A model generated the notes under the pieces. The model searched no databases, was not told the origin of the DNA, and saw only the letters and a list, made by a program, of their open reading frames with translations. Made by a program: the position numbers and the translations under genes. 9,483 nt of DNA, from positions 1-9,483 of the IMG/VR virus record IMGVR_UViG_2778261058_000006. One strand, written 5' to 3'. The DNA is from a virus. Lineage: Duplodnaviria; Heunggongvirae; Uroviricota; Caudoviricetes. This document shows positions 1-9,483 of this stretch, one piece after another (the stretch's first letter is position 1; every line of letters starts with the position of its first letter).

Positions 1-68
1 CACGACCAGGCTTAAGGACCACCAGCCCGAGTTCCGGTACCGGAACAGGTCGAAGCAATACCCGCACG

Positions 69-347
69 TTACCTCCAGATCCGTTGCTGGAATGTGCGGG
101 ACGGACGCGGTGGGCGTTCAGAGTAAGGCAGTCTGACTGAGATGATCCAGTGTCGGAAGTCGAGGCTGAGGTCTTTCTGAAACTCGTAACCACGTCTGCG
201 GTAGTTCTGAATCAGCCATTCGGCCTGTTCTTCAGTGCATGGACCATGCTGGAACCAGTCAGATTTGAATGCATGAGAACGCCGCCCGCGCCTGCTGGCA
301 AGGACGGCGAGATTATCAGAATTGTGTGATCTGGAATTTTGCGCCAT
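69..347 (-). CDS. Hypothetical prophage protein (92 aa); C-terminal third is low-complexity and may reflect a frameshifted or truncated gene
   Basis: ATG at 347..345 preceded by a GGAGAAAG SD-like motif. N-terminal two thirds look protein-like. Stop TAA at 71..69. The two other minus-strand frames stay open from about position 100 to the window edge. Confidence 0.35.
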   Translation of the reverse strand: MAQNSRSHNSDNLAVLASRRGRRSHAFKSDWFQHGPCTEEQAEWLIQNYRRRGYEFQKDLSLDFRHWIISVRLPYSERPPRPSRTFQQRIWR

Positions 348-413
348 CGGCTTTCTCCGGTGGCACAGTGTTACTCAGCAGGGGTTCGGCCCTGCGCTGA
401 ATTGTAGATGAAT

Positions 414-674
414 TCACTCATCTTCAAAAGCAGAAAAACCAGCCTTAAGCCCAGCTTCTTTCAGAGACTGCAATGATGTGACAAATTCATTTTCACGCAA
501 AATAAAACCATCCGTCACCAGTCCATCCACAAAGTAAATTAACGCCGCCCCACTCTTCCTTTGTTGAGACTGTAAACATTTAATACGGCAGTGGCTGACA
601 ATAGCGCCATTCTCAACGCGCACAGTATAGAGGCCATCTTCACTAAAAATTTCAACCAATTCTTCGATTTTCAT
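414..674 (-). CDS. Hypothetical small prophage protein (86 aa)
   Basis: ATG at 674..672 with a GGAAGGA SD about 9 nt upstream (the ORF-track start at 677 is TTG). Clean ORF downstream of the hok terminator. It sits where rem lies in K-12 Qin, but identity was not verified. Confidence 0.5.
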   Translation of the reverse strand: MKIEELVEIFSEDGLYTVRVENGAIVSHCRIKCLQSQQRKSGAALIYFVDGLVTDGFILRENEFVTSLQSLKEAGLKAGFSAFEDE

Positions 675-863
675 CAACAGAATCCTTCCAGATAAATAGC
701 ACTCCCCTGCTCGGGGTCCATCCCTCTTCTCCCTGCGCGCTACTTAAGAGCCTCGATTCTAGCCGTGAAGACATACCGATCAACAGCAATAAGCCACCTG
801 AATAACAGAATCAGCCAGCCACATCAGTACAACCAGATGCATCATGCTCACCGAAAATAAACA

Positions 864-887
864 ACAAAAAACCCGCCGAAGCGGGTT
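864..887 (-). terminator. Rho-independent terminator downstream of the hok-like gene
   Basis: On the minus strand: 7-bp GC-rich stem AACCCGC/GCGGGTT with TTCG loop, followed by a U-run (complement of the A6 run at 866-871). Confidence 0.6.
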
Positions 888-955
888 AAGTGCGGGTGCG
901 TTGAGGATGCCTGACACATCAGAGGTGGCGAGGGATTTCTCCCCCGCCGGGTCTC

Positions 956-1111
956 TTACTCCTCAGGTTCGTAAGCTGTGAAGACAGCGACCTCCGTCTG
1001 GCCGGTTCGGATTCGTACCTCGCAGAGGTCTTTCCTCGTTACCAGTGCCGTCACTATGACGGTTAAACAGATGACGATCAGGGCGATTAACATCGCCTTT
1101 TGCTGCTTCAT
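956..1111 (-). CDS. hokD: Hok/Gef-family type I toxin (51 aa, single-TM membrane peptide)
   Basis: Translation MKQQKAMLIALIVICLTVIVTALVTRKDLCEVRIRTGQTEVAVFTAYEPEE matches my recollection of E. coli HokD/RelF and is close to HokC/Gef. AAGGAG SD 9 nt upstream of ATG 1111..1109. In-frame upstream GTG at 1138 gives a Mok-like 9-aa extension (MPKGKEKQA). Confidence 0.85.
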   Translation of the reverse strand: MKQQKAMLIALIVICLTVIVTALVTRKDLCEVRIRTGQTEVAVFTAYEPEE

Positions 1112-1380
1112 AGCCTGCTTCTCCTTGCCTTTCGGCACGTAAGAGGCTAATCTTCAGTTGTCGAGACATAAGACTGGCCTCACTTCGATTTATAGTCGGG
1201 TGGGGCTTTTCTCTATCTGCCTTTGGTGGCATGCCCGAGACAGATAGCCTCAAGCACCCGCAGCAATTCTACTTAACTCTCCTTTTCCCGCAAACCGTTT
1301 TTATCCCCAACGGCAATTCGAATACACTACCAGCGCCACCGCCAGTGCAATTCCTACCGTTGTGAATGCTTCAGGCCAGG

Positions 1381-1947
1381 TCATCGTAAAATATCCTCCG
1401 CGCTTATCAGTCCGTTTCGCTTCAGGTAGACCATCGCCTTCTCCGGTAATTTGCAGTCCGGCTTCGCTTTCCTCAATTGGCTAACCAGTTGTTTAATCAG
1501 CATTGTTAATTCCCGTACCTGAACGTCCCTTTTGGTATCCTCATTGGTGAGGATACCATCGTCTTTCCCCTGAAGCATGGCGGCGCAGCAGGCGTTCCAT
1601 GAAATTTCCTGAAGGGAACGACGAATCTGTGTGCTGCATATACTCCTCCCTGACTCCTGGCTGTTAAACCATGTTTCAAATTCCGGCACTACCGTCGCTG
1701 GCGGAGCAGCGTATAGCGGCACGTATATTTCCGGTTCCTTGTCTGCTCCTGGTTGCCCTTCCAGTGAGAATGTCTTTCCGGTAAATCGATTCATATAAAG
1801 CATTGGCTCTGCTTCCAGTGATGCCAGTGCGATACGAAACACATTGGCAAGCAGGCTGTCTGAAGATTGGTTATCGTGCGCCGGGTCGCTCAGGAAACCA
1901 GTGATGAATGATTTAATCTCCGCGTTTTCTCTGGTAATAGTGGTCAT
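1381..1947 (-). CDS. Hypothetical prophage protein (188 aa)
   Basis: ATG 1947..1945 preceded by AGGAGA SD, which lies in the last codons of the upstream gene (stop 1951..1949). Long ORF on the operon strand. Confidence 0.6.
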   Translation of the reverse strand: MTTITRENAEIKSFITGFLSDPAHDNQSSDSLLANVFRIALASLEAEPMLYMNRFTGKTFSLEGQPGADKEPEIYVPLYAAPPATVVPEFETWFNSQESGRSICSTQIRRSLQEISWNACCAAMLQGKDDGILTNEDTKRDVQVRELTMLIKQLVSQLRKAKPDCKLPEKAMVYLKRNGLISAEDILR

Positions 1948-1948
1948 A

Positions 1949-2167
1949 TCAGTTCTCCTTATACGGATTAATTTTATTGTGCAGTGTGTTGAACAACGCC
2001 CATACCACGTCGTTATACAATTCAATAACTGGCTCAATTATTTTCCCGATTGCCCAGACAAAAATTAGCGGGGATATCGGTATCATCAACACGATAAACA
2101 GAATGAGAAACAAAAATTCTGTCGCTCTACTTTTTCGCGGATATTCTTTTCTGAATAATGTAGGCAC
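1949..2167 (-). CDS. Small putative membrane protein (about 72 aa, one predicted TM helix), AT-rich
   Basis: GTG 2167..2165 sits 6 nt after an AAGGAG SD and 1 nt after the stop of the upstream gene. Hydrophobic stretch FLFLILFIVLMIPISPLIFVWAIG. The ORF-track start at 2188 is a TTG inside the upstream gene. Confidence 0.4.
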   Translation of the reverse strand: MPTLFRKEYPRKSRATEFLFLILFIVLMIPISPLIFVWAIGKIIEPVIELYNDVVWALFNTLHNKINPYKEN

Positions 2168-2168
2168 A

Positions 2169-2528
2169 TCACTCTCCTTTGATGCCAATGTTTACAGCCT
2201 GGCAAGCCTCTTTGAGCACCCAGTCAACAGCGTCTTTCCATGCTCCGGTTTCGACTGGCGGATTTTCACGCTTAACCTGTTCATAGAAGCGCACTGCTTT
2301 AATCAATCCTTCTGGTGTCAGTGGCACAGGCGGGGCAGTGAATAACGCCTGAATTTCATAGCTCGGCCTGTCGTTGCAATCCTCTTTTGTCGGTACATAT
2401 TTCCAGTCACCAACCCACGACTCCCCCTGAGAGTCCGTAACGCCTTTTTTCACGTAGCGATATCGCCATGCAACTGGTTTTGCCTGCCCTGCCGTTTCAT
2501 GTCCTTCCTGATAATTAATCTCGCTCAT
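2169..2528 (-). CDS. Hypothetical prophage protein (119 aa)
   Basis: ATG 2528..2526 overlaps the stop of the upstream 58-aa ORF (ATGA). Clean ORF on the operon strand. Confidence 0.6.
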   Translation of the reverse strand: MSEINYQEGHETAGQAKPVAWRYRYVKKGVTDSQGESWVGDWKYVPTKEDCNDRPSYEIQALFTAPPVPLTPEGLIKAVRFYEQVKRENPPVETGAWKDAVDWVLKEACQAVNIGIKGE

Positions 2529-2701
2529 TCATCGCCCCACTCATCACAATATGCTTCGACCGGAGTTTTTCCTGCTTCGTAGTCATCACGCCATGCTTCA
2601 GCATCAGCGGCACTTCCACCGCGTAACTCTGCATAGTCCATTAACAGTTCATGCCATTCTTCAAAACTGACGTTGTATTTAGTTGAACCAAAATCAGCCA
2701 T
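2525..2701 (-). CDS. Small acidic hypothetical protein (58 aa), below the ORF-track length cutoff
   Basis: Hand translation gives MADFGSTKYNVSFEEWHELLMDYAELRGGSAADAEAWRDDYEAGKTPVEAYCDEWGDE. GAGGAAG SD about 9 nt upstream. Start overlaps the upstream stop by 8 nt and its stop overlaps the next ATG (ATGA), filling an otherwise unexplained gap. Confidence 0.4.
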   Translation of the reverse strand: MADFGSTKYNVSFEEWHELLMDYAELRGGSAADAEAWRDDYEAGKTPVEAYCDEWGDE

Positions 2702-2876
2702 TTTGTTCTTCCTCTTCGTCTTTTATTTCGTGATATGAGTAATTGCAGCAGTTAAAGAAAATTTCTTTTGCTTCGTCATGAATTTCATCAGGTGTTGCGT
2801 CATCGTCCACTTCGAATACATCCTCAAAATCTCCACCAGCTATTCCAGTTTCAATAATTATTTTGAACTTTCGCAT
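2694..2876 (-). CDS. Small acidic hypothetical protein (60 aa)
   Basis: ATG 2876..2874 (internal Met of ORF 2694..2957). A GC hairpin lies just upstream; the SD is weak (GGCGG). Confidence 0.45.
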   Translation of the reverse strand: MRKFKIIIETGIAGGDFEDVFEVDDDATPDEIHDEAKEIFFNCCNYSYHEIKDEEEEQNG

Positions 2877-3004
2877 TTCACTACCGCCCTTTCGGGCGGC
2901 CTCCGGATGATTTGAGGGTGCAGGAATCCCTCCGGTTAAGGATTTAATAAAAACCACTTCTGATTTAAATTTTCAGTGTTTTGTTGCCAGGTGATTTATC
3001 GCCT

Positions 3005-3316
3005 TTACGCTTCAGCCTTATTTCGCAACCAGACACAAACCGGGCCATCTTCGGTGTCATGTATTGAACCAATAAACCATCCATCGCCCTCTGGTCGTTC
3101 CGGTTTCCAGGAGGCAATATCGGGACCATCTGCATCAAGATTAAAATCATCTTCATCCATAGTTCTGATGGTCCATTGAAGATTATTTTCCTCCATCCAT
3201 GCGTTAAACTCTTCCGTTGAAATATGTTCTCTACCATCACAGAATTTTTCATATTCAGGATGCGTCCAGCAGCCATATTCATCACGTACTACTGGTATTT
3301 CTTTAATTTCATTCAT
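3005..3316 (-). CDS. Hypothetical prophage protein (103 aa)
   Basis: ATG 3316..3314 with GGGAGAA SD; overlaps the upstream gene stop by 8 nt. Confidence 0.55.
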   Translation of the reverse strand: MNEIKEIPVVRDEYGCWTHPEYEKFCDGREHISTEEFNAWMEENNLQWTIRTMDEDDFNLDADGPDIASWKPERPEGDGWFIGSIHDTEDGPVCVWLRNKAEA

Positions 3317-3563
3317 TTCTGTTCTCCCACGTTTTCAGACTTTCACCACAGAACGGACAAAATGAAACCCGCACTGGTGATTTAGAAAATTCACCGGAAC
3401 GCAACATCACCAAATCAGGGCCGCGAGTTAAACTCTCATTCCAGATTTTGTATATCAGCAGACCTTTTCGCGTCGTGTATTCAGCATCATGCTCAAGGGA
3501 TTTTGCCAGTGCTGCACATGGTTCTATCTTGTTGCCATTAATTTGGCATTTTGGCTCACTCAC
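3309..3563 (-). CDS. Hypothetical small protein (84 aa) with paired Cys motifs (possible zinc ribbon)
   Basis: GTG 3563..3561 with AAGGAGG SD 6 nt upstream; GTGA overlap with the upstream stop. Cys at C-x9-C near the N-terminus and C-P-F-C near the C-terminus. Confidence 0.55.
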   Translation of the reverse strand: MSEPKCQINGNKIEPCAALAKSLEHDAEYTTRKGLLIYKIWNESLTRGPDLVMLRSGEFSKSPVRVSFCPFCGESLKTWENRNE

Positions 3564-4198
3564 TGTTTACCTCCTTTTCGAAGCTGTTCGGCGATATCTT
3601 CGAGAACGCCATCAGAGAATGAGCGGTCAAAATCGCCTTCCGGCGCATTAGCCATAAACTCAGTAGAGGTAAGAATCATCCGGGCAATATCCGCGGCGTT
3701 CTTCGCAGTATCATCAATAAAACCAGCTTCCCAGGCAGCCAGCATTCTGTTCGCCACAAAGTAAGCGCCCTCCTTGCGTGCTTCAGTCTTCACTTCAGCC
3801 AAGAAAGCGTCGGTGGCTGGGGTTTGCGGCATCCTTCCGTCTATTGCGCAGATATACGCATCAGATAGTTCATCCTGCTCGCCATCAAACACGTAGCAAC
3901 TCTGTACGATAAATTTATTCAGCCCCGCATTCTCCGCCGCAAGCGCAGCAAGATTAGTCTCCAGCTCTGCAATGCGTTTGCTTTGGGCTTCCCGTTCATC
4001 CAACAGTGCCAGCACGGTAGCCGGATTGGCTGCTGCTATGAATCGCTTATTGGCGCGATTATCTGGTCCTGAGCATGATGCTATGTAGTAATTTGCGTTC
4101 AGTCCGGCATCAGCAATTAACCCATAATCATCAGAACACCATTCGCCAGGGGTTGCATTTTCTGCCGCCATTCGCAGTGCCTGGTAATTAATGTTGCT
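3560..4198 (-). CDS. Ea22/Ead-like prophage protein (about 212 aa)
   Basis: GTG 4198..4196 with AGGAGG SD 6 nt upstream. N-terminal motif [20 protein letters not shown] is typical of enterobacterial Ea22-like proteins (recalled family knowledge). Overlaps the upstream gene stop by 11 nt. Confidence 0.6.
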
Positions 4199-4931
4199 CA
4201 CTGGTTTCCTCCTGGCAAAGCTGGGCGACAATATCGCGATATTTATTCAGCTCCCGCAGCGCGGCACAGACTCGCTCCCATTTCCGGATATCACTTTTCG
4301 CCCGACGCAGTTCGCGGTTTGCCTGTCGCAGCGATGGCAGAACCAGATTATCCACTCGCTTCTCAAGCGGCTGCACAATGTCCGCCACAGTTTCTGTTTT
4401 AATATCTTCCTGTGTTGCAGCTTCCTGTACTGGTAACGCAACACATGCAGGCTGAGGAAAGGCTTTACCATCAGTTTCCGCTACCGATGCCGCTTTCGGC
4501 TCTGCTGGTAAATTACCGCCCGGCATGCAGTAACGAAATTTACCGTTCTGATTAACACGAATCAGACGACCTTTGCTGATTGCCATTGCCAGCGTTGAAG
4601 CCACTTTGCGGGATGTTGTACCGAACAGCGTAGCCAGTTCATCCGCCGTTTGTGGTCCGCGTTGTTCAATCGTCGCGGTTAAATCGTACTCTGAGATTTT
4701 CGCCACTGTCGCCGTGGTGGTTTCTTCCGGCTGTTCTTCTGGCGCTGGCTGTTCCTGCTGAACGTTGTTATCAGCCACACGCCAGGTGTATACGCTTTTA
4801 TCAACGAAGCCAGCCTTTTTCAGTTCCCACAGCTCGTTCAGTACTTCTTCACGACTGATATCAAGTCGCGCAGCCAGCTCTACCGACGTGGCTTTTCCCA
4901 TCGCTTTCAGTGCGTCAAAAACAGTCTCCAT
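4188..4931 (-). CDS. Hypothetical prophage protein (247 aa) with two winged-helix-like segments
   Basis: ATG 4931..4929 with GGAGG SD about 9 nt upstream (the ORF-track start at 4997 is upstream of this RBS). Function unknown. Confidence 0.6.
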
Positions 4932-4965
4932 TAAAATTTCCTCCCGGTAAAAATTACTTCTCAAC

Positions 4966-5631
4966 TCAAACAAACCCAGCCGCTTTCCGGCGTTCATATT
5001 CCTGTTTCAGTAACTCAATTGGCGTTGGCCCCGACGGGCGTTTGGGTGCCGCCAGTTGTCGCCGGACTGGCGGAACGCTCAGGCCGTTACTAACATGCTT
5101 TGCCCATTTCGTCAGCTGCCGTTCTGCAAGCTGTTTTAATTCCCCTTCGGTCATCTGACGCTCAATCCCCTTATCACGCATCTCGAGGCAAATGTGATAC
5201 AGCACAGGCTGAGACCACGGGTACTTATCACTTCCGTCGTATCGCCAGGACTCATTGCGCCAGCGGCGGTACTCCTCCATCACAGCATCCACCGTCAGAC
5301 CAAATGGATTTGCCCCACTCTCCGAAATCAGCGCCACAAACTCAGCCAGGTCCGGAGGCCATGTTTCACCCGCCCGGCAGCGGTCCATGCACTGGCGGCA
5401 GACCAGCCGGATTTGCTGCTCAGTCATCGCGCCAATCTGTGCAATCCAGAGCTTCGAAGGTGCGGCCCCGTTCTTCTGGGTCCAGCGGTTCGAATAAACC
5501 TCCCCCATGAGTTCCCACAGCTTCCACGCCGTTTCCGTCGCTGATAAATCCGTTTTCACGTTCCCACTGCTCACGTGCTGCCCGAATTTCCTGAACTGCC
5601 CGTGATGCGGTGCCGCCTGGTGCTGCTGCAT
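4966..5631 (-). CDS. Lambda P-like replication protein (DnaB helicase loader)
   Basis: Recalled lambda P shares a YPW-containing segment and a similar C-terminus with this ORF. ATG 5631..5629 has a GGGGGTGA SD-like motif. Start is uncertain; alternatives are 5508 and 5427. Confidence 0.65.
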
Positions 5632-6460
5632 GGCTCACCCCCTTGCTGACTGGTTTAACCTGCGCCCTGACGTGATGTACGTGACGGGCGAATTTCTGCT
5701 CCCACTGAACCTGCGTGAAAACTTTCCCCTCCGCTGCCCAGTAGTCCCGGAAGGCGGCAAGTTCAGCTGGTGTAAATTCCGGCTCCGGCAGAGCCATCCC
5801 CCACAACGCAGCCCGTCGTCGAAAATCCCGTGACGGATGCCAGCTATCGGTCATCGGAAATTTTCCGATGGGCTCGCTCAGGCCATCCAGGAATACAGGG
5901 GATGTTGCCTGTAACGACAAAACTTCCTGCTCACTGGTCGGAGCACTCTCGTGTGCGTTATGTGTGGGGTTTAGATCTTTGGGTTCCTTTGGGTTCCGTG
6001 ATCCGTTTTTGGGTGTCTTTGATGGAAAATTTGGGTGTCTTTGGTTATTTTCCATGCAGAAAAGAGTTCCGTTTTTGGGGCTGTTTTGTGCTGAAACATA
6101 ACCGTTTTTGGTACTGTTTTTATTAACAGCACCAATTTTACCCACCTTTAAAGACTCCCGTTTTTGGGTGTATTCAGGCTCGGCAACACTTTCTTCTACA
6201 CCGATAAGTCGGTACACCACGATTTGCTTTGTTCGGCCTTTTCTCTCACCGGTATCAATAATTAACCCAATCTCCATCAGGTGTCGTAAGCTGTCCTGCA
6301 CAGTCTTTTTGTTCAGTTCCGTTACTTCTGCCAGTGCAGATACAGACGGGTATGCGCACAAATCGGCACCGCACATATCAGCAAGCCAGGTCAATACTGA
6401 CTTACTGGATGAACTGCCGGTTTTCACCTTTTTAGCCCATCGTAGTGCATCGATACTCAT
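5420..6460 (-). CDS. Phage replication initiator (O-like): N-terminal HTH, iteron-encoded linker, DnaT-like C-terminal domain
   Basis: Domain-like layout by eye. Iteron repeats lie inside the coding sequence, as in lambda O. Start is uncertain: ATG 6460, ATG 6523 or TTG 6535. Confidence 0.7.
   Translation of the reverse strand: MSIDALRWAKKVKTGSSSSKSVLTWLADMCGADLCAYPSVSALAEVTELNKKTVQDSLRHLMEIGLIIDTGERKGRTKQIVVYRLIGVEESVAEPEYTQKRESLKVGKIGAVNKNSTKNGYVSAQNSPKNGTLFCMENNQRHPNFPSKTPKNGSRNPKEPKDLNPTHNAHESAPTSEQEVLSLQATSPVFLDGLSEPIGKFPMTDSWHPSRDFRRRAALWGMALPEPEFTPAELAAFRDYWAAEGKVFTQVQWEQKFARHVHHVRAQVKPVSKGVSHAAAPGGTASRAVQEIRAAREQWERENGFISDGNGVEAVGTHGGGLFEPLDPEERGRTFEALDCTDWRDD
5978..6171. repeat. Iteron cluster (putative replication origin) inside the O-like gene
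   Basis: CCGTTTTTGG(G) at 6003, 6069, 6102 and 6159. TTTGGGTGTCTTTG at 6008 and 6031. Tandem TTTGGGTTCC at 5978 and 5988. Followed by a moderately AT-rich stretch at 6111-6150. Confidence 0.55.
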
Positions 6461-6983
6461 ACGAACCCCAGACAGATATTTGTTTATCTGCAAAGTAATG
6501 TTGGTATTGCTGACGATACGCATGCTTGAAAGCAATAGCTTTTTCTATAAGCTCGTCAGTCTCACGTTCCACAACAGCTGGATCCGCAAAAAGCAGCCCG
6601 GACTCCACCACATCGCCATATTCTTTGTTTAACCCGGCGATCATGTACGTAATGCTTTTTCCGTCAGTAATTTCACAATACAACCTGAAATCGCTGATCC
6701 GGATAGCCTCCATAATTGCCGGAATCAGCGCCGTGAATTTTTCCCGCTTATCCCTGGTGTCGATAGCTTTCCAGCGTTCAAATATTTTCACCCGGTTAAC
6801 GCCCAGTGCCCGTTGATCAACCGCGCCATCATCAAACGTGACGCGTTGAACATCAATGTTCGGGCGTTCTTTCAGAGCCCAGAATGCTTCCGTGATTAAT
6901 ATCGTCGCCTGCTCCTGTGTCATTCCTGGTCGGCATACCCAGGAATCCAGAGCCTCACAAGCCTGTTCAGGGGTGATTTTCAT
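6432..6983 (-). CDS. Hypothetical protein in the cII position of the early operon (183 aa); possible regulatory protein
   Basis: ATG 6983..6981 overlaps the 3' end of the DicC-like gene by 17 nt; its own 3' end overlaps the O-like gene. Weak SD; an alternative start is ATG 6923. Confidence 0.5.
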   Translation of the reverse strand: MKITPEQACEALDSWVCRPGMTQEQATILITEAFWALKERPNIDVQRVTFDDGAVDQRALGVNRVKIFERWKAIDTRDKREKFTALIPAIMEAIRISDFRLYCEITDGKSITYMIAGLNKEYGDVVESGLLFADPAVVERETDELIEKAIAFKHAYRQQYQHYFADKQISVWGSYEYRCTTMG

Positions 6984-7195
6984 TGTTCAACCGCCCCGCA
7001 CGCTTTGCCTTACGATATTCGTCATAAACTTTGGGATCGTACTGAAGCTCCCCGCCGGATGCCTCCTGTAGACGCATCGCGCGACCTTCAGGAACCAGTT
7101 CCCCCCATGCAGCAATGCTTGCCAGCCTAACTCCTGCGGCATTGGCAATGCTTTGTTTTGCTGCCAAAAAACGCTATAGCATCAATTTTCAACAT
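6967..7195 (-). CDS. dicC: DicC-like (Cro-analogue) repressor with an apparent +1 frameshift near the 5' end; possible pseudogene
   Basis: Strong AAGGAG SD plus ATG 7195..7193 opens a frame encoding MLKIDAIAFFGSKTKHCQCRRS, then stops. The conserved body (...AAGVRLAS...GRAMRLQEASGGELQYDPKVYDEYRKAKRAGRLNNENHP) is in the next frame, which has a stop at 7176..7174 and only a TTG at 7167 without SD. Confidence 0.6.
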
Positions 7196-7271
7196 ATCGA
7201 GCTCCTTAGATTTTCCTAAGGAAACTAGATCGTAGAGAAACCTAAGTCAAGAAAAATTAGAATTCCCTAAT
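7196..7271. promoter_or_regulatory. Divergent promoter/operator region between the DicC-like and DicA-like genes
   Basis: Perfect palindrome TCCTTAG-N6-CTAAGGA at 7203-7222, overlapping the DicC-like SD. Palindrome ATTAG-N6-CTAAT at 7256-7271, abutting the DicA-like ATG. Extra CCTAAG at 7241-7246. Confidence 0.5.
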
Positions 7272-7679
7272 ATGAAAAACGAAACCTTCGGTGCTCGCCT
7301 CTTACATAGGCGTAAAAAATTAAAACTGTCTCAGGCCGCATTAGGTAAGCTGGTCAAAGTGGCTCACGTAACAATTTCTCAATGGGAAAGAGATGAAACA
7401 CAGCCGGCGGGGAAAAGATTATTCGCACTGAGCCAAGCGCTTCAGTGCTCACCGACTTGGCTTCTTTTTGGGGATGAAGATAAACAACCAGGCGAACCGA
7501 TCCCGGATAATCAGCCAGCCATTCTGACAGAAGATCAAAAAGAGTTACTTCAACTGTTCGACGCACTGCCTGAGTCAGAGCAAAAAGCCCTGTTGTCAGA
7601 GATGCGTGCTCGAGTTGAAAATTTCAACAAACTTTTTGAAGAACTACTCAAAGCTCGCAAAAGAAGCGCAAACAAATAA
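7272..7679 (+). CDS. dicA: DicA-like HTH (Xre/cI-type) prophage repressor, 135 aa
   Basis: N-terminal HTH (LSQAALGKLVKVAHVTISQWER) and a C-terminus resembling recalled DicA. Divergent from the Cro analogue. No SD upstream, so possibly a leaderless-type start. Confidence 0.85.
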   Translation: MKNETFGARLLHRRKKLKLSQAALGKLVKVAHVTISQWERDETQPAGKRLFALSQALQCSPTWLLFGDEDKQPGEPIPDNQPAILTEDQKELLQLFDALPESEQKALLSEMRARVENFNKLFEELLKARKRSANK

Positions 7680-7744
7680 TCCCCTTTTTTCTCCACACCC
7701 TGTAATAAAAAGCACAAACTTTCAAACACTTGTGTTTTTTACAT

Positions 7745-7810
7745 CAAAAAACTTAGGTTTTTCTACATAAAAACCTTGACCACCCACCTTAGGTTATTCT
7801 AAATTTCATT
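7745..7810 (+). promoter_or_regulatory. Putative DicA-controlled promoter/operator for the ydfA-B-C operon
   Basis: Direct repeats CTTAGGTTTTTCTACA (7752-7767) and CTTAGGTTATTCTAAA (7788-7803) flank a TTGACC -35-like hexamer (7776-7781). They share a CTTAGnTTnTTC core with the operator palindrome at 7203-7222. The -10 element is not cleanly identifiable. Confidence 0.4.
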
Positions 7811-7881
7811 CATCAAGACACCGCACGGTGTTCTCAGCAAACAGTTCCGCCACCCCGGCGTTAAGGGGAAATGAGGTCAAC

Positions 7882-8037
7882 ATGGATACTATCGATCTTG
7901 GCAACAACGAATCTCTGGTGTGCGGCGTGTTCCCCAACCAGGACGGTACGTTCACCGCGATGACATATACCAAAAGCAAAACGTTTAAAACCGAAAATGG
8001 TGCCCGTCGCTGGCTGGAAAGAAACTCAGGTGAGTGA
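7882..8037 (+). CDS. ydfA: YdfA-like small prophage protein (51 aa)
   Basis: ATG 7882; MDTIDLGNNESLV... matches recollection of Qin YdfA. Position and size fit the Qin gene order. Confidence 0.7.
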   Translation: MDTIDLGNNESLVCGVFPNQDGTFTAMTYTKSKTFKTENGARRWLERNSGE

Positions 8038-8038
8038 T

Positions 8039-8167
8039 ATGGATTTCGACGCAATCATGAAAAAGGCTTACGAAGAATACTTCGAAGGCCTTGCTGAAGG
8101 CGAAGAAGCTCTCAGCTTCAGTGAGTTTAAACAGACGCTTTCCAGTCCGGCAAAATCTAACGGCTGA
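8039..8167 (+). CDS. ydfB: YdfB-like small prophage protein (42 aa), absent from the ORF track
   Basis: ATG 8039, 1 nt after the ydfA-like stop. Hand translation MDFDAIMKKAYEEYFEGLAEGEEALSFSEFKQTLSSPAKSNG; stop TGA 8165-8167. Confidence 0.6.
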   Translation: MDFDAIMKKAYEEYFEGLAEGEEALSFSEFKQTLSSPAKSNG

Positions 8168-8196
8168 TAGGCGAAGCAGCACCGCGAGGAATCAGT

Positions 8197-8415
8197 ATGC
8201 AGAAACGAGAACCCGTCATCATCGCGCCAGACTATACCGATGATGAACTTTATGAGTGGATGCGCCAGAAAATTAATGCAGCGCAGGACCTGAAATGGGC
8301 CAATGAAGCCAGGGCTAAGCAGGCTGAAAATCTGTCCGCTCTGGAGCAGGATATCACCAGGCTGGAAAAAGCGGCGGCATTAAGCATTGCCAGAATGATT
8401 ACATACCCACGTTAA
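8197..8415 (+). CDS. ydfC: YdfC-like small prophage protein (72 aa)
   Basis: GAGGAA SD then ATG 8197. Size and position fit the Qin gene order. Confidence 0.7.
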   Translation: MQKREPVIIAPDYTDDELYEWMRQKINAAQDLKWANEARAKQAENLSALEQDITRLEKAAALSIARMITYPR

Positions 8416-8437
8416 TAGCTAACCAACGAGGCTAATA

Positions 8438-9043
8438 ATGGAATTTAAAGATTTACCAAAAGAAATCCAGACAATTGCTGCAACGACTCTCGGTGATAGC
8501 CTGGTGAAAATTGACCCCGCATGCACCAAAAAAGAAACCATCGATAATATGGTTCGTAATGTGCGCAATGCTTTTTCTGGGCTATATGGTTCTGATAATC
8601 AAAAGCAGGAAAGCGATGTTAATGAACGGGTAATTTCTGTTTGCCTGAATGGCCATGTTCTTTCATCAATCAAAACAGAAACAGCGACAGCCATCGATTA
8701 CCTTTGCATTGTACAGAGCCTTTTTGATGCCCTGTTTCGTTCAGTGAATTTAAAAAATGATGCAAATCTGCGAGGGCGCACAATAGCACATTCATATGCA
8801 CATACTTTAGGCTCTGTGGATGTTAAAAATAATACCCTGCAAGTTACTCTCGAACATTCACCGCAAGAGTTGAAAACGGAAAAATACGATGCAAATAAAA
8901 ATAATAACGATAAACCTGATTTGTTTATTATCAGCTCAAAGCTACTGGAAGTCATGAAGAGCGAGCTTGAGAAACACGACATCAAGCCCACTCCTGTATA
9001 TTTACGATGGATAATGAAGATTATTGATGCTTCTCTGCCATAA
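8438..9043 (+). CDS. Hypothetical protein (201 aa), AT-rich accessory gene of unknown function
   Basis: ACGAGG SD about 8 nt upstream of ATG 8438, 22 nt after the ydfC-like stop. Uninterrupted ORF to TAA 9041-9043. Codon usage is visibly AT-rich (many AAA/AAT/GAT), roughly 35-40% GC by eye. No match to anything I recognise. Confidence 0.6.
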   Translation: MEFKDLPKEIQTIAATTLGDSLVKIDPACTKKETIDNMVRNVRNAFSGLYGSDNQKQESDVNERVISVCLNGHVLSSIKTETATAIDYLCIVQSLFDALFRSVNLKNDANLRGRTIAHSYAHTLGSVDVKNNTLQVTLEHSPQELKTEKYDANKNNNDKPDLFIISSKLLEVMKSELEKHDIKPTPVYLRWIMKIIDASLP

Positions 9044-9212
9044 GCTTCTTATCCAGGAATGCTTCAAATTTATCGTAAATGACGTCAATCTCCCCCATTT
9101 GCTCGGTAGCAATAGAAATGGCGTGAGATGGTGAAATGGGCACCTGGCAATGGGCGTTAAAGGTTTCCACAGCCAGGCGCATAAGGAACATTACTTTTTC
9201 TTCTTGTGTCAT
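9021..9212 (-). CDS. Hypothetical small protein (63 aa), convergent with and overlapping the 201-aa gene
   Basis: ATG 9212..9210 with GGAGGG SD about 6 nt upstream (ORF-track start 9221 is a GTG inside the SD). Stop at 9023..9021, overlapping the 3' end of the 201-aa gene by 23 bp. Confidence 0.5.
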   Translation of the reverse strand: MTQEEKVMFLMRLAVETFNAHCQVPISPSHAISIATEQMGEIDVIYDKFEAFLDKKLMAEKHQ

Positions 9213-9348
9213 AAATTTCACCCTCCTGAGGGTTGGTAATTAAGGAGTTCTCCACGGGTCAGGTGGAGTGCGTGCGCCGGACACGGGTGAGCATCCGGCA
9301 CTGGCAGTTTACTGAAAGGATATATCCCTGAAAAGTCAGGGCATAACA

Positions 9349-9418
9349 CGGAAGCGCACAGCGAAGTCATTCCTCCCTTTGTTGTGTACCACTGACATCT
9401 TCGTCTGTGCGCTTCCGG
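9349..9418. repeat. Long imperfect inverted repeat (potential RNA hairpin) upstream of the 63-aa gene
   Basis: Left arm CGGAAGCGCACAGCGAAG (9349-9366) pairs with right arm CTTCGTCTGTGCGCTTCCGG (9399-9418), one bulge, about 32-nt loop. A second small hairpin CCCTGA-AAAG-TCAGGG lies at 9326-9341. Confidence 0.4.
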
Positions 9419-9483
9419 TTGTGGCACTCCGCGAAATGGCGCGGCGGTAAGTATGGCGAGGCTATCCTTTCCTCGAGATAACA

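Follow-up and report, generated by a model that had tools for sequence, protein, structure and literature searches.

What joins two small convergent genes in the early operon of a lambdoid prophage, and to which strand does the structured DNA beside them belong? The question is raised by a 9,483-nucleotide (nt) stretch of viral DNA (Caudoviricetes; IMG/VR record IMGVR_UViG_2778261058_000006, positions 1 to 9,483), referred to as the window, in which a minus-strand gene of 63 amino acids (aa), gene A, runs into the 3' end of a plus-strand gene of 201 aa. An initial annotation, made from the letters alone, had suggested that the pair could be a two-gene module under antisense or leader-based control, and had described a 6-bp hairpin and a long imperfect inverted repeat upstream of A. 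Based on its open reading frames (ORFs) and domain matches, the window covers the immunity and early region of a Qin/DicB-type lambdoid prophage. The sequence comparisons reported below indicate that A and the C-terminal domain of the 201-aa protein, domain B, form a conserved two-gene accessory module of the early-left (PL/dicBp) operon in lambdoid and P22-like phages. They further indicate that the structured region belongs to the precursor of the small RNA (sRNA) DicF. We consider this combination of locus anatomy, A/B pairing and reassigned leader highly probable.

Gene A is a genuine protein-coding gene: it matches a PHROG family (E = 3e-22), homologues in different contexts are 32-52% identical to it, and substitutions favour the third codon position. 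Specifically, the substitutions at codon positions 1, 2 and 3 stood at 62:20:206 among five homologues from different contexts. The count was taken over codons 1-50, since these overlap nothing on the opposite strand. Both the minus-strand ORF and its strong Shine-Dalgarno (SD) sequence were found where the initial annotation had placed them. An alternative GTG at 9221 would yield 66 aa; the homologues begin MTQEEK or MTKEEK. The family is small and restricted to enterobacterial prophages: a word-indexed search gave 14 clusters, and a profile search gave 19 representatives among 1.8 billion proteins. The protein is acidic (isoelectric point 5.2) and soluble, with no transmembrane segment (maximum 19-residue Kyte-Doolittle window, 0.82), and its profile made no link to a known protein among PDB sequences.

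The 23-bp overlap between A and the 201-aa gene was also as first described, and it takes in the last eight codons of A, counting the stop, together with the end of B. That the two transcripts are partly complementary follows from this geometry, provided that A is transcribed. Other contexts retain an overlap of 23-39 bp, and its codons hardly vary. Using A as the query, tblastn returned Edwardsiella phage EPP-1, Shigella phage SfII and two E. coli phages. The convergent neighbour of A is a protein of 121 aa in EPP-1 and of 119 aa in phiSTEC1589, and its C-terminus corresponds in alignments to residues ~160-201 of the 201-aa protein; SfII has an ORF of 68 aa, unannotated, that bears the B motif and converges on A with a 39-bp overlap. 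Look-ups from the B side (four, covering seven places) always returned a convergent 63-aa homologue of A, again with a 39-bp overlap. The standalone B/A pairs in these look-ups lie directly downstream of a cI-type repressor, and in a Kluyvera prophage (L129) B is the first gene after a PL promoter that matches the consensus at 11 of 12 positions. Starting from A, the look-ups led to an N-type PL operon with B in a 118-aa fusion, to E. albertii with the 201-aa fusion and to a standalone B of 57 aa.

Domain B is carried on at least three unrelated N-termini, or on none, and A is kept each time. Neither A without B nor B without A was seen in the 7 look-ups from either side. Co-occurrence was 100% both ways in about a dozen contexts from four genera, Escherichia, Shigella, Kluyvera and Edwardsiella, in agreement with the suggestion of a two-gene module. 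Literature searches found no published description of the pair or of the site that it occupies, and its sources are PHROGs of unknown function annotated everywhere as "hypothetical protein". The A/B pair is an uncharacterised family, unusual in its obligate convergent dual-coding overlap, in the modularity of B and in the many alternative pairs that occur at one site.

The modular nature of B is evident within the 201-aa protein itself. Residues 1-133 are ~90% identical to a 135-aa protein of phage Evi (phrog_1363) that is paired with a different small gene, which places an exchange point just before domain B. E. coli and Salmonella have full-length forms at 78-100% identity, and E. albertii has one as well. 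The 201-aa protein is acidic and soluble (maximum 19-residue hydropathy, 1.27). Domain B spans ~45 residues, and its profile retrieved standalone proteins of 58-59 aa; against PDB sequences, the profile gave nothing or one chance match. An AlphaFold2 model built from an 11-sequence alignment placed helices at residues 22-39 and 46-59 of a 61-residue construct, with block-mean predicted local distance difference test (pLDDT) values above 90 across residues 21-60. As modelled, B is a two-helix module. A single-sequence model of the 201-aa protein was uninformative (pLDDT 51). A ribbon-helix-helix fold, considered for B from its sequence pattern, was rejected: AlphaFold2 gave two helices and no strand, and there was no Pfam or PDB match at E <= 10.

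The two genes make up a cassette inserted between ydfC and the structured region. In E. coli K-12, the leader sequence comes directly after ydfC; in the window, a 795-bp block lies between the two, consisting of the 201-aa gene and the convergent gene A. Its GC content is 38-42%, versus ~50% in the flanks. Frequencies were determined in 5,426 complete E. coli genomes, for which the leader part and the 63-aa gene were searched separately: the A allele occurs in 8 genomes and the leader (9231-9483) in 4172. The cassette has the marks of a moron, being present or absent among collinear relatives, replaced by other cassettes elsewhere and deviant in GC content.

To describe the site more widely, leader variants were drawn from 120 IMG/VR contigs gathered via an invariant 28-nt leader core. 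Where the upstream sequence was long enough, ydfC directly abuts the leader in ~30 loci, the K-12 arrangement, and a minus-strand gene of 43-143 aa starts just before the leader in another ~30. These small genes belong to at least ten unrelated families. Nearly all face a plus-strand gene that has a common N-terminal module of ~55 residues (MEFKDLP...KETIDN..VR.AF.GLY), diverges afterwards and overlaps the small gene by 0-44 bp; residues ~1-55 of the 201-aa protein (MEFKDLP...GLY) are this module. The slot between ydfC and the dicF leader is hypervariable, trading alternative convergent pairs. The L043-type cassette is probably a distant A/B pair: its small protein matches A (hhalign, 86%, E = 5e-6), and its partner matches B at only 31%. 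None of the alternative small proteins matched Pfam or PADLOC (10 were searched in PADLOC), and the two weak PADLOC matches obtained were both to a neighbouring zinc-ribbon protein.

Two further arrangements were observed within this early operon. At locus L135 (1803-2335), a second convergent pair (108 aa on the plus strand, 69 aa on the minus strand) lies just upstream of A/B, and at locus L004 (1876-2076) a zinc-ribbon protein of the ECs_2282 family faces ydfC, replacing ydfA/ydfB. It seems that these early operons recurrently carry small genes in antisense orientation.

Such a slot could also house genes that have nothing to do with each other. A might be a lysogen-expressed accessory gene acting, for example, in exclusion or host modulation, and B an unrelated early gene, the two morons being linked only through their shared 3' DNA and a convergent layout imposed by the slot. 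At least 10 unrelated slot cassettes have the same geometry (overlaps 0-44 bp), another convergent pair adjoins A/B in L135, the operon can hold an antisense ECs_2282-family gene, and low-GC insertions are typical of morons. However, only 8-13 codons overlap, and yet the entire ~45-residue B is kept with A, at 33-55% identity. Moreover, the region N-terminal to B has been exchanged at least three times while A stayed, and unpaired copies of A or B were absent from the look-ups. We regard independent morons as possible but rather unlikely.

The cassette can be compared with established morons (lambda rexAB and sieB, 933W stk, BTP1 bstA and HK022 nun). Like these, it is a low-GC insertion swapped between related prophages within a conserved early region, and its orientation would permit expression independent of the repressed operon. 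Unlike them, it lies inside a PL-type operon rather than between cI and PL, always comprises two convergent overlapping genes, lacks a recognisable promoter or terminator of its own for A/B and has no homology to known exclusion or defence proteins.

Returning to A and B as a functional pair, their arrangement suggests how the two might be expressed. B is encoded in the sense of the operon and so can be made solely when the DicA-type repressor is lifted; A is antisense and lies wholly beneath the operon read-through transcript. In the mechanism that we propose, only A would be made while the operon is repressed, as in a lysogen. Upon derepression, convergent transcription and a full-length antisense RNA would switch A off while B appears. 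The two proteins may bind each other as cognate partners, A antagonising B or timing its action; this partnership is suggested by the fact that the pair is never split and that the slot carries many alternative pairs. Mutually exclusive expression of partner proteins is offered tentatively, as something short of probable. The best candidate promoter for A, a weak one, has 8 of 12 consensus matches, under the scan threshold; it is conserved and overlaps hairpin c, a structured RNA. No lambda CII-type site (TTGC-N6-TTGC) was matched near A.

Convergent overlapping units have precedents. As with lambda OOP RNA and cII, A and B are 3'-overlapping units in a lambdoid early operon, and sense-antisense pairing is a plausible control. 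The OOP/cII duplex is cut by RNase III and OOP is a non-coding RNA of 77 nt, whereas A and B are both protein-coding and their overlap is dual-coding. The prophage type I systems txpA/RatA and bsrG/SR4 have a similar convergent, 3'-overlapping layout. A/B resembles these systems, and also the hok/sok locus of the window, in that small prophage genes face an antisense partner across the 3' end.

This resemblance raises a toxin-antitoxin or abortive-infection function, in which B, switched on together with the lytic operon, would be toxic and A would act as a protein antitoxin or its transcript as a type I-like antisense RNA. The two are small, co-conserved prophage proteins, and classical toxin-antitoxin pairs lie nearby in related loci. 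Furthermore, the neighbours DicB, DicF and YdfD are each toxic upon expression (PMC10448788). A type II system is contradicted by the genes being convergent, not co-directional, in all contexts, and searches of Pfam, NCBIfam, PADLOC and PDB sequences gave no toxin or antitoxin domain. With respect to type I, neither protein is a hydrophobic peptide (the hydropathy maxima are 0.82 for A and 1.27 for the 201-aa protein). In addition, a type I antitoxin should be non-coding, whereas A codes for a protein (62:20:206) under purifying selection. Overall, we consider a toxin-antitoxin or abortive-infection function unlikely.

The inverted repeats upstream of A have a different affiliation. In K-12, the operon runs ydfA-ydfB-ydfC, a long untranslated region, DicF and dicB (PMC5069750). 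The window stops ~90 nt short of DicF and ~300 nt short of dicB; past its end, near-identical E. coli loci have dicB, DUF1482 (YdfD-like), a RecE-type exonuclease, xis and int. The leader, present in 77% of the E. coli genomes, is 83-85% identical to that of K-12 strains across about 240 nt. K-12 possesses it without the cassette, and there DicF follows the homologous leader. The order of the hairpins, including the long one, is the same as in the dicBF untranslated region of Qin (Faubladier et al. 1990; Ragunathan et al. 2023, PMC10448788). The window allele differs from the K-12 Qin leader in its loop and in having a central stem that pairs perfectly over 13 bp. Region 9231-9483 belongs to the conserved dicF precursor on the plus strand and is not a private regulator of A. 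The initial proposal that the structured region is a leader of the 63-aa gene therefore fails, in that the region is present without the cassette in K-12 and occurs in most E. coli genomes.

The structures themselves were substantiated. When folded, region 9213-9483 (271 nt) was more stable than all 200 of 200 dinucleotide shuffles on both strands (plus strand, -106 kcal/mol, z = -3.4; minus strand, -101 kcal/mol, z = -4.5). The 6-bp hairpin (hairpin c) was present as described, and the long imperfect inverted repeat (hairpin d), originally delimited as 9349-9418, proved to be real and slightly longer. Hairpin d has 24 pairs in three stacked stems with two single-base bulges. Hairpins e and f are the start of the most widely conserved block of the leader. 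A search of the window against Rfam at E <= 1 gave nothing in 8300-9483.

Three features of hairpin d point to the plus strand. First, of the 50 distinct versions folded, 48 gave a more stable structure on the plus strand than on the minus strand. Second, a divergent leader type (the L016 group) has the same hairpin shape with other arm sequences, at -42 kcal/mol on the plus strand versus -27 to -31 kcal/mol on the minus strand. Third, G-U pairs, which form on the plus strand only, occur at 11 pair positions, and A-C combinations, which correspond to pairs on the minus strand only, at 5. In the main leader type, 92% of cells were paired, versus 32-43% in slid controls. A 190-nt species of DicF has a 5' end generated by RNase III and a 3' end in common with the 53-nt DicF (PMC10448788). 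Counting 190 nt back from the 3' end of K-12 DicF leads to L003 1685-1689, in the 3' arm of hairpin d, equivalent to window 9413-9417. The fragment length was used for this purpose as the published site number, 813/814, did not agree with a count from the transcription start that the published transcript length implies. We infer that hairpin d is the RNase III site that releases the 190-nt species.

These data bear directly on whether 9213-9483 could still serve as a regulatory 5' leader of A, whether as an attenuator, as a riboswitch-like element or by coupling through an ORF at 9218-9427. A directly adjoins the leader in every context, the promoter of A must sit in or beyond it, and the minus strand folds far better than its shuffles (z = -4.5). 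A hairpin ~40 nt upstream of the A start codon (hairpin a) is moreover kept in every A context with a compensatory T-A/A-T swap; it is also found in K-12 and so cannot be assigned to A. Against a leader of A, the region occurs without any cassette in K-12 and most E. coli genomes. Likewise, the long hairpin, which the initial annotation had linked to A, favours the strand antisense to A and fits, by length arithmetic, an RNase III processing site of the plus-strand transcript. Together with the lack of an Rfam match and the fate of the ORF, described below, this makes an A leader very unlikely.

The ORF at 9218-9427 exists as described, with its TGA at 9220-9218, but is not a gene. It has no ribosome-binding site at its GTG start and no family match. 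Loop indels of 1-5 nt cause K-12 and SC407 to read the same downstream DNA in different frames, and stop-free stretches persist in both. The ORF is probably a by-product of stop-poor, GC-rich structured sequence. The suggestion of coupled translation involving an ATG in the hairpin loop has no basis, since the frame is not conserved.

Another local structure was observed at the SD sequence of A, which can be sequestered in a hairpin (ACCCU-CAGG-AGGGU; minus strand, window 9220-9233). This hairpin occurs only in cassettes of the dicF slot and is absent from A genes outside it. The inverted repeat sits exactly at the junction between cassette and leader; SC407, whose small gene is a different one, shares this junction. 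The repeat could sequester the ribosome-binding site or could mark a recombination joint.

That the 63-aa ORF is not a gene, its conservation stemming from the opposite strand or from an antisense RNA, is exceedingly unlikely: no promoter was found and RefSeq leaves A unannotated in some phages, but codons 1-50 face non-coding DNA and yet show the 62:20:206 bias, and A has a strong SD sequence, a PHROG family and protein-level conservation across genera.

Several points weigh against our interpretation of A/B as partners and of the region beside them as dicF leader. Physical overlap alone could hold both genes together, and since unrelated cassettes share the convergent layout, it may be the slot, not a partnership, that dictates the geometry. 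Neither A nor the 201-aa protein matched Pfam, NCBIfam or PADLOC, and Foldseek comparison of the B model with the PDB gave nothing below E = 7, the model being an uninformative helical hairpin. Consensus scans of the window and three other contexts gave neither a promoter nor a terminator for A; the promoter scan also misses the known dicBp and is weak evidence. Covariation in hairpin d, counted on the main leader type alone with the divergent L016 type set aside, was weak: there was one double change, shuffle controls were not exceeded and the arms are nearly invariant. Finally, the RNase III position was calculated from the published length of a fragment and does not represent a cleavage site mapped in this allele. 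Considered whole, with anatomy, pairing, leader reassignment and mechanism together, the explanation has in our estimation slightly better than an even chance of being correct.

Table 1. Positions of features in the window and of related loci.
Feature	Position	Strand	Details
Gene A, 63 aa	9021..9212	-	ATG 9212-9210 to TAA 9023-9021; phrog_2605
SD sequence of gene A, GGAGGG	9221..9226	-	8 nt upstream of ATG
201-aa gene	8438-9043	+	Member of DicA-repressed dicBF-type operon
Domain B, residues ~160-201, DLFIISSKLLEVMKSELEKHDIKPTPVYLRWIMKIIDASLP	8915..9040	+	From alignments; phrog_15476, phrog_2982
Dual-coding 3' overlap of A and 201-aa gene, 23 bp	9021..9043	both
Inserted cassette, 795 bp	8436..9230		Absent from K-12; alignment with K-12, SC407 and Br190
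5' part of conserved long untranslated dicF leader, dicBF operon	9231..9483	+	Window stops before DicF
Hairpin a, CTCCAC-GGGTCAG-GTGGAG	9250..9268	+	~40 nt from A start codon
Hairpin b, GCCGGA...TCCGGC	9276..9299	+
Hairpin c, CCCTGA-AAAG-TCAGGG, 6 bp	9326..9341	+	Merely 4 bp in K-12
Hairpin d, long hairpin	9342..9423	+	Putative RNase III processing site of dicF precursor
Hairpin e, CCGCG-AAATGG-CGCGG	9429-9444	+
Hairpin f, CGAGG...CCTCG	9457-9475	+
Best weak candidate promoter of A, TTTTCA (9334-9329), 17 nt, TAAACT (9311-9306)	9306..9334	-	Manual reading
69-aa ORF, GTG start	9218..9427	-	Not a gene
DicA-like repressor, 135-aa helix-turn-helix protein	7272-7679		Very similar to DicA; ORF list and domain matches
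ydfA, ydfB, ydfC	ydfC, 8197-8415	+	ORFs and domain matches
B as 201-aa fusion			Window, L002, L139
B in proteins of 118-119 aa			phiSTEC1589, L136-138 (N-type PL operon)
B standalone, 57-59 aa			Kluyvera and metagenome prophages
B in 68-aa protein			SfII
B in 121-aa protein			EPP-1
Alternative cassettes	Slot equivalent to 8436-9230		L004, L008, L011, L017, L019, L020, L038, L043, L059, L101, L106, L116
Probable annotation errors	L001 and L002 8039-8437; L007 3154-3360, 2542-2880; L001 8861-9142

Some existing annotations of these loci appear to be in error. The 201-aa gene, though intact, is labelled by RefSeq a pseudogene 'missing C-terminus' in L001 and L002 (8039-8437 in each), and the 68-aa partner gene in SfII lacks an annotation. 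Conversely, the structured leader is overlain by what are probably spurious ORFs, namely SfII_35 and a 'hypothetical protein' of E. coli.

The most widely conserved part of the leader is a stretch of ~120 nt that separates the RNase III hairpin from DicF (window 9424-9483 onward; K-12, L003 1690-1812). This block also occurs in P1 and P7 ("dicF-like region", AF234172), in cdtI and Stx2c phages, and in Salmonella and Actinobacillus phages, with one Aeromonas phage record among the matches; more than 120 IMG/VR contigs have an exact copy of its 28-nt core. Conceivably, the block provides antitermination of the put type (HK022), permitting read-through of the DicF terminator. Such a role was considered because this operon lacks an N gene and must pass the DicF terminator. 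Weak matches to STnc100 (RF02076; 31-40 bits, under the gathering score) were obtained at L006 2526-2733, L136 1527-1721, L139 1381-1605 and L007 2697-2912. In three of these loci the match lies immediately downstream of DicF and runs into the start of dicB/kil, and one match is in SfII, where no DicF was detected.

Elsewhere in the window, a complete type I toxin-antitoxin locus of the hok/sok type occupies 956-1259 on the minus strand, with the sok RNA at 1106-1259 (Rfam RF01794, 120 bits) and a Hok/Gef-like ORF (MKQQKAMLIALIVICLTVIV...) at 956-1138. An isrK-like sRNA match (RF01394, 30.5 bits, under the gathering score of 50) lies at 866-947 on the minus strand, in the nin/Q-proximal region, and its 3' end resembles a terminator.

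Beyond the pair itself, the slot might be a polymorphic specificity locus, each cassette encoding an early effector in the operon sense, whose variable C-terminal module (B in the window) would act in lytic growth, and a small lysogen-expressed protein from the antisense strand (A in the window) that would neutralise this effector alone. As in polymorphic toxin-immunity systems such as contact-dependent inhibition (CDI) and Rhs, a conserved N-terminal module is joined to a variable C-terminal module and a small neighbouring gene co-varies with it. Unlike in CDI and Rhs, the small gene of the slot is convergent rather than downstream in the same sense, there is neither a toxin domain nor a secretion context, and the partnership is deduced. 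We rate this extension as improbable. If it were true, convergent transcription would flip the state from 'A only' to 'B only' at induction, and a resident prophage would exclude or disarm superinfecting relatives with the same cassette, or would shield its lysogen from leaky expression. It would amount to a second, protein-level immunity system in lambdoid phages.

For the dicBF operon, assigning the structured region to the DicF precursor returns it to known biology and removes the tempting reading of it as a leader of A. Any transcription of A would run antisense to this operon, just upstream of the RNase III site. A/B itself appears to be a previously undescribed module of temperate phages, two proteins encoded in the early operon by genes that are obligately paired and overlap convergently. 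Exclusion, defence and counter-defence functions have come to light repeatedly in slots of this kind beside phage immunity regions, and the cassettes of this slot provide a compact set of small proteins in which to test for them.

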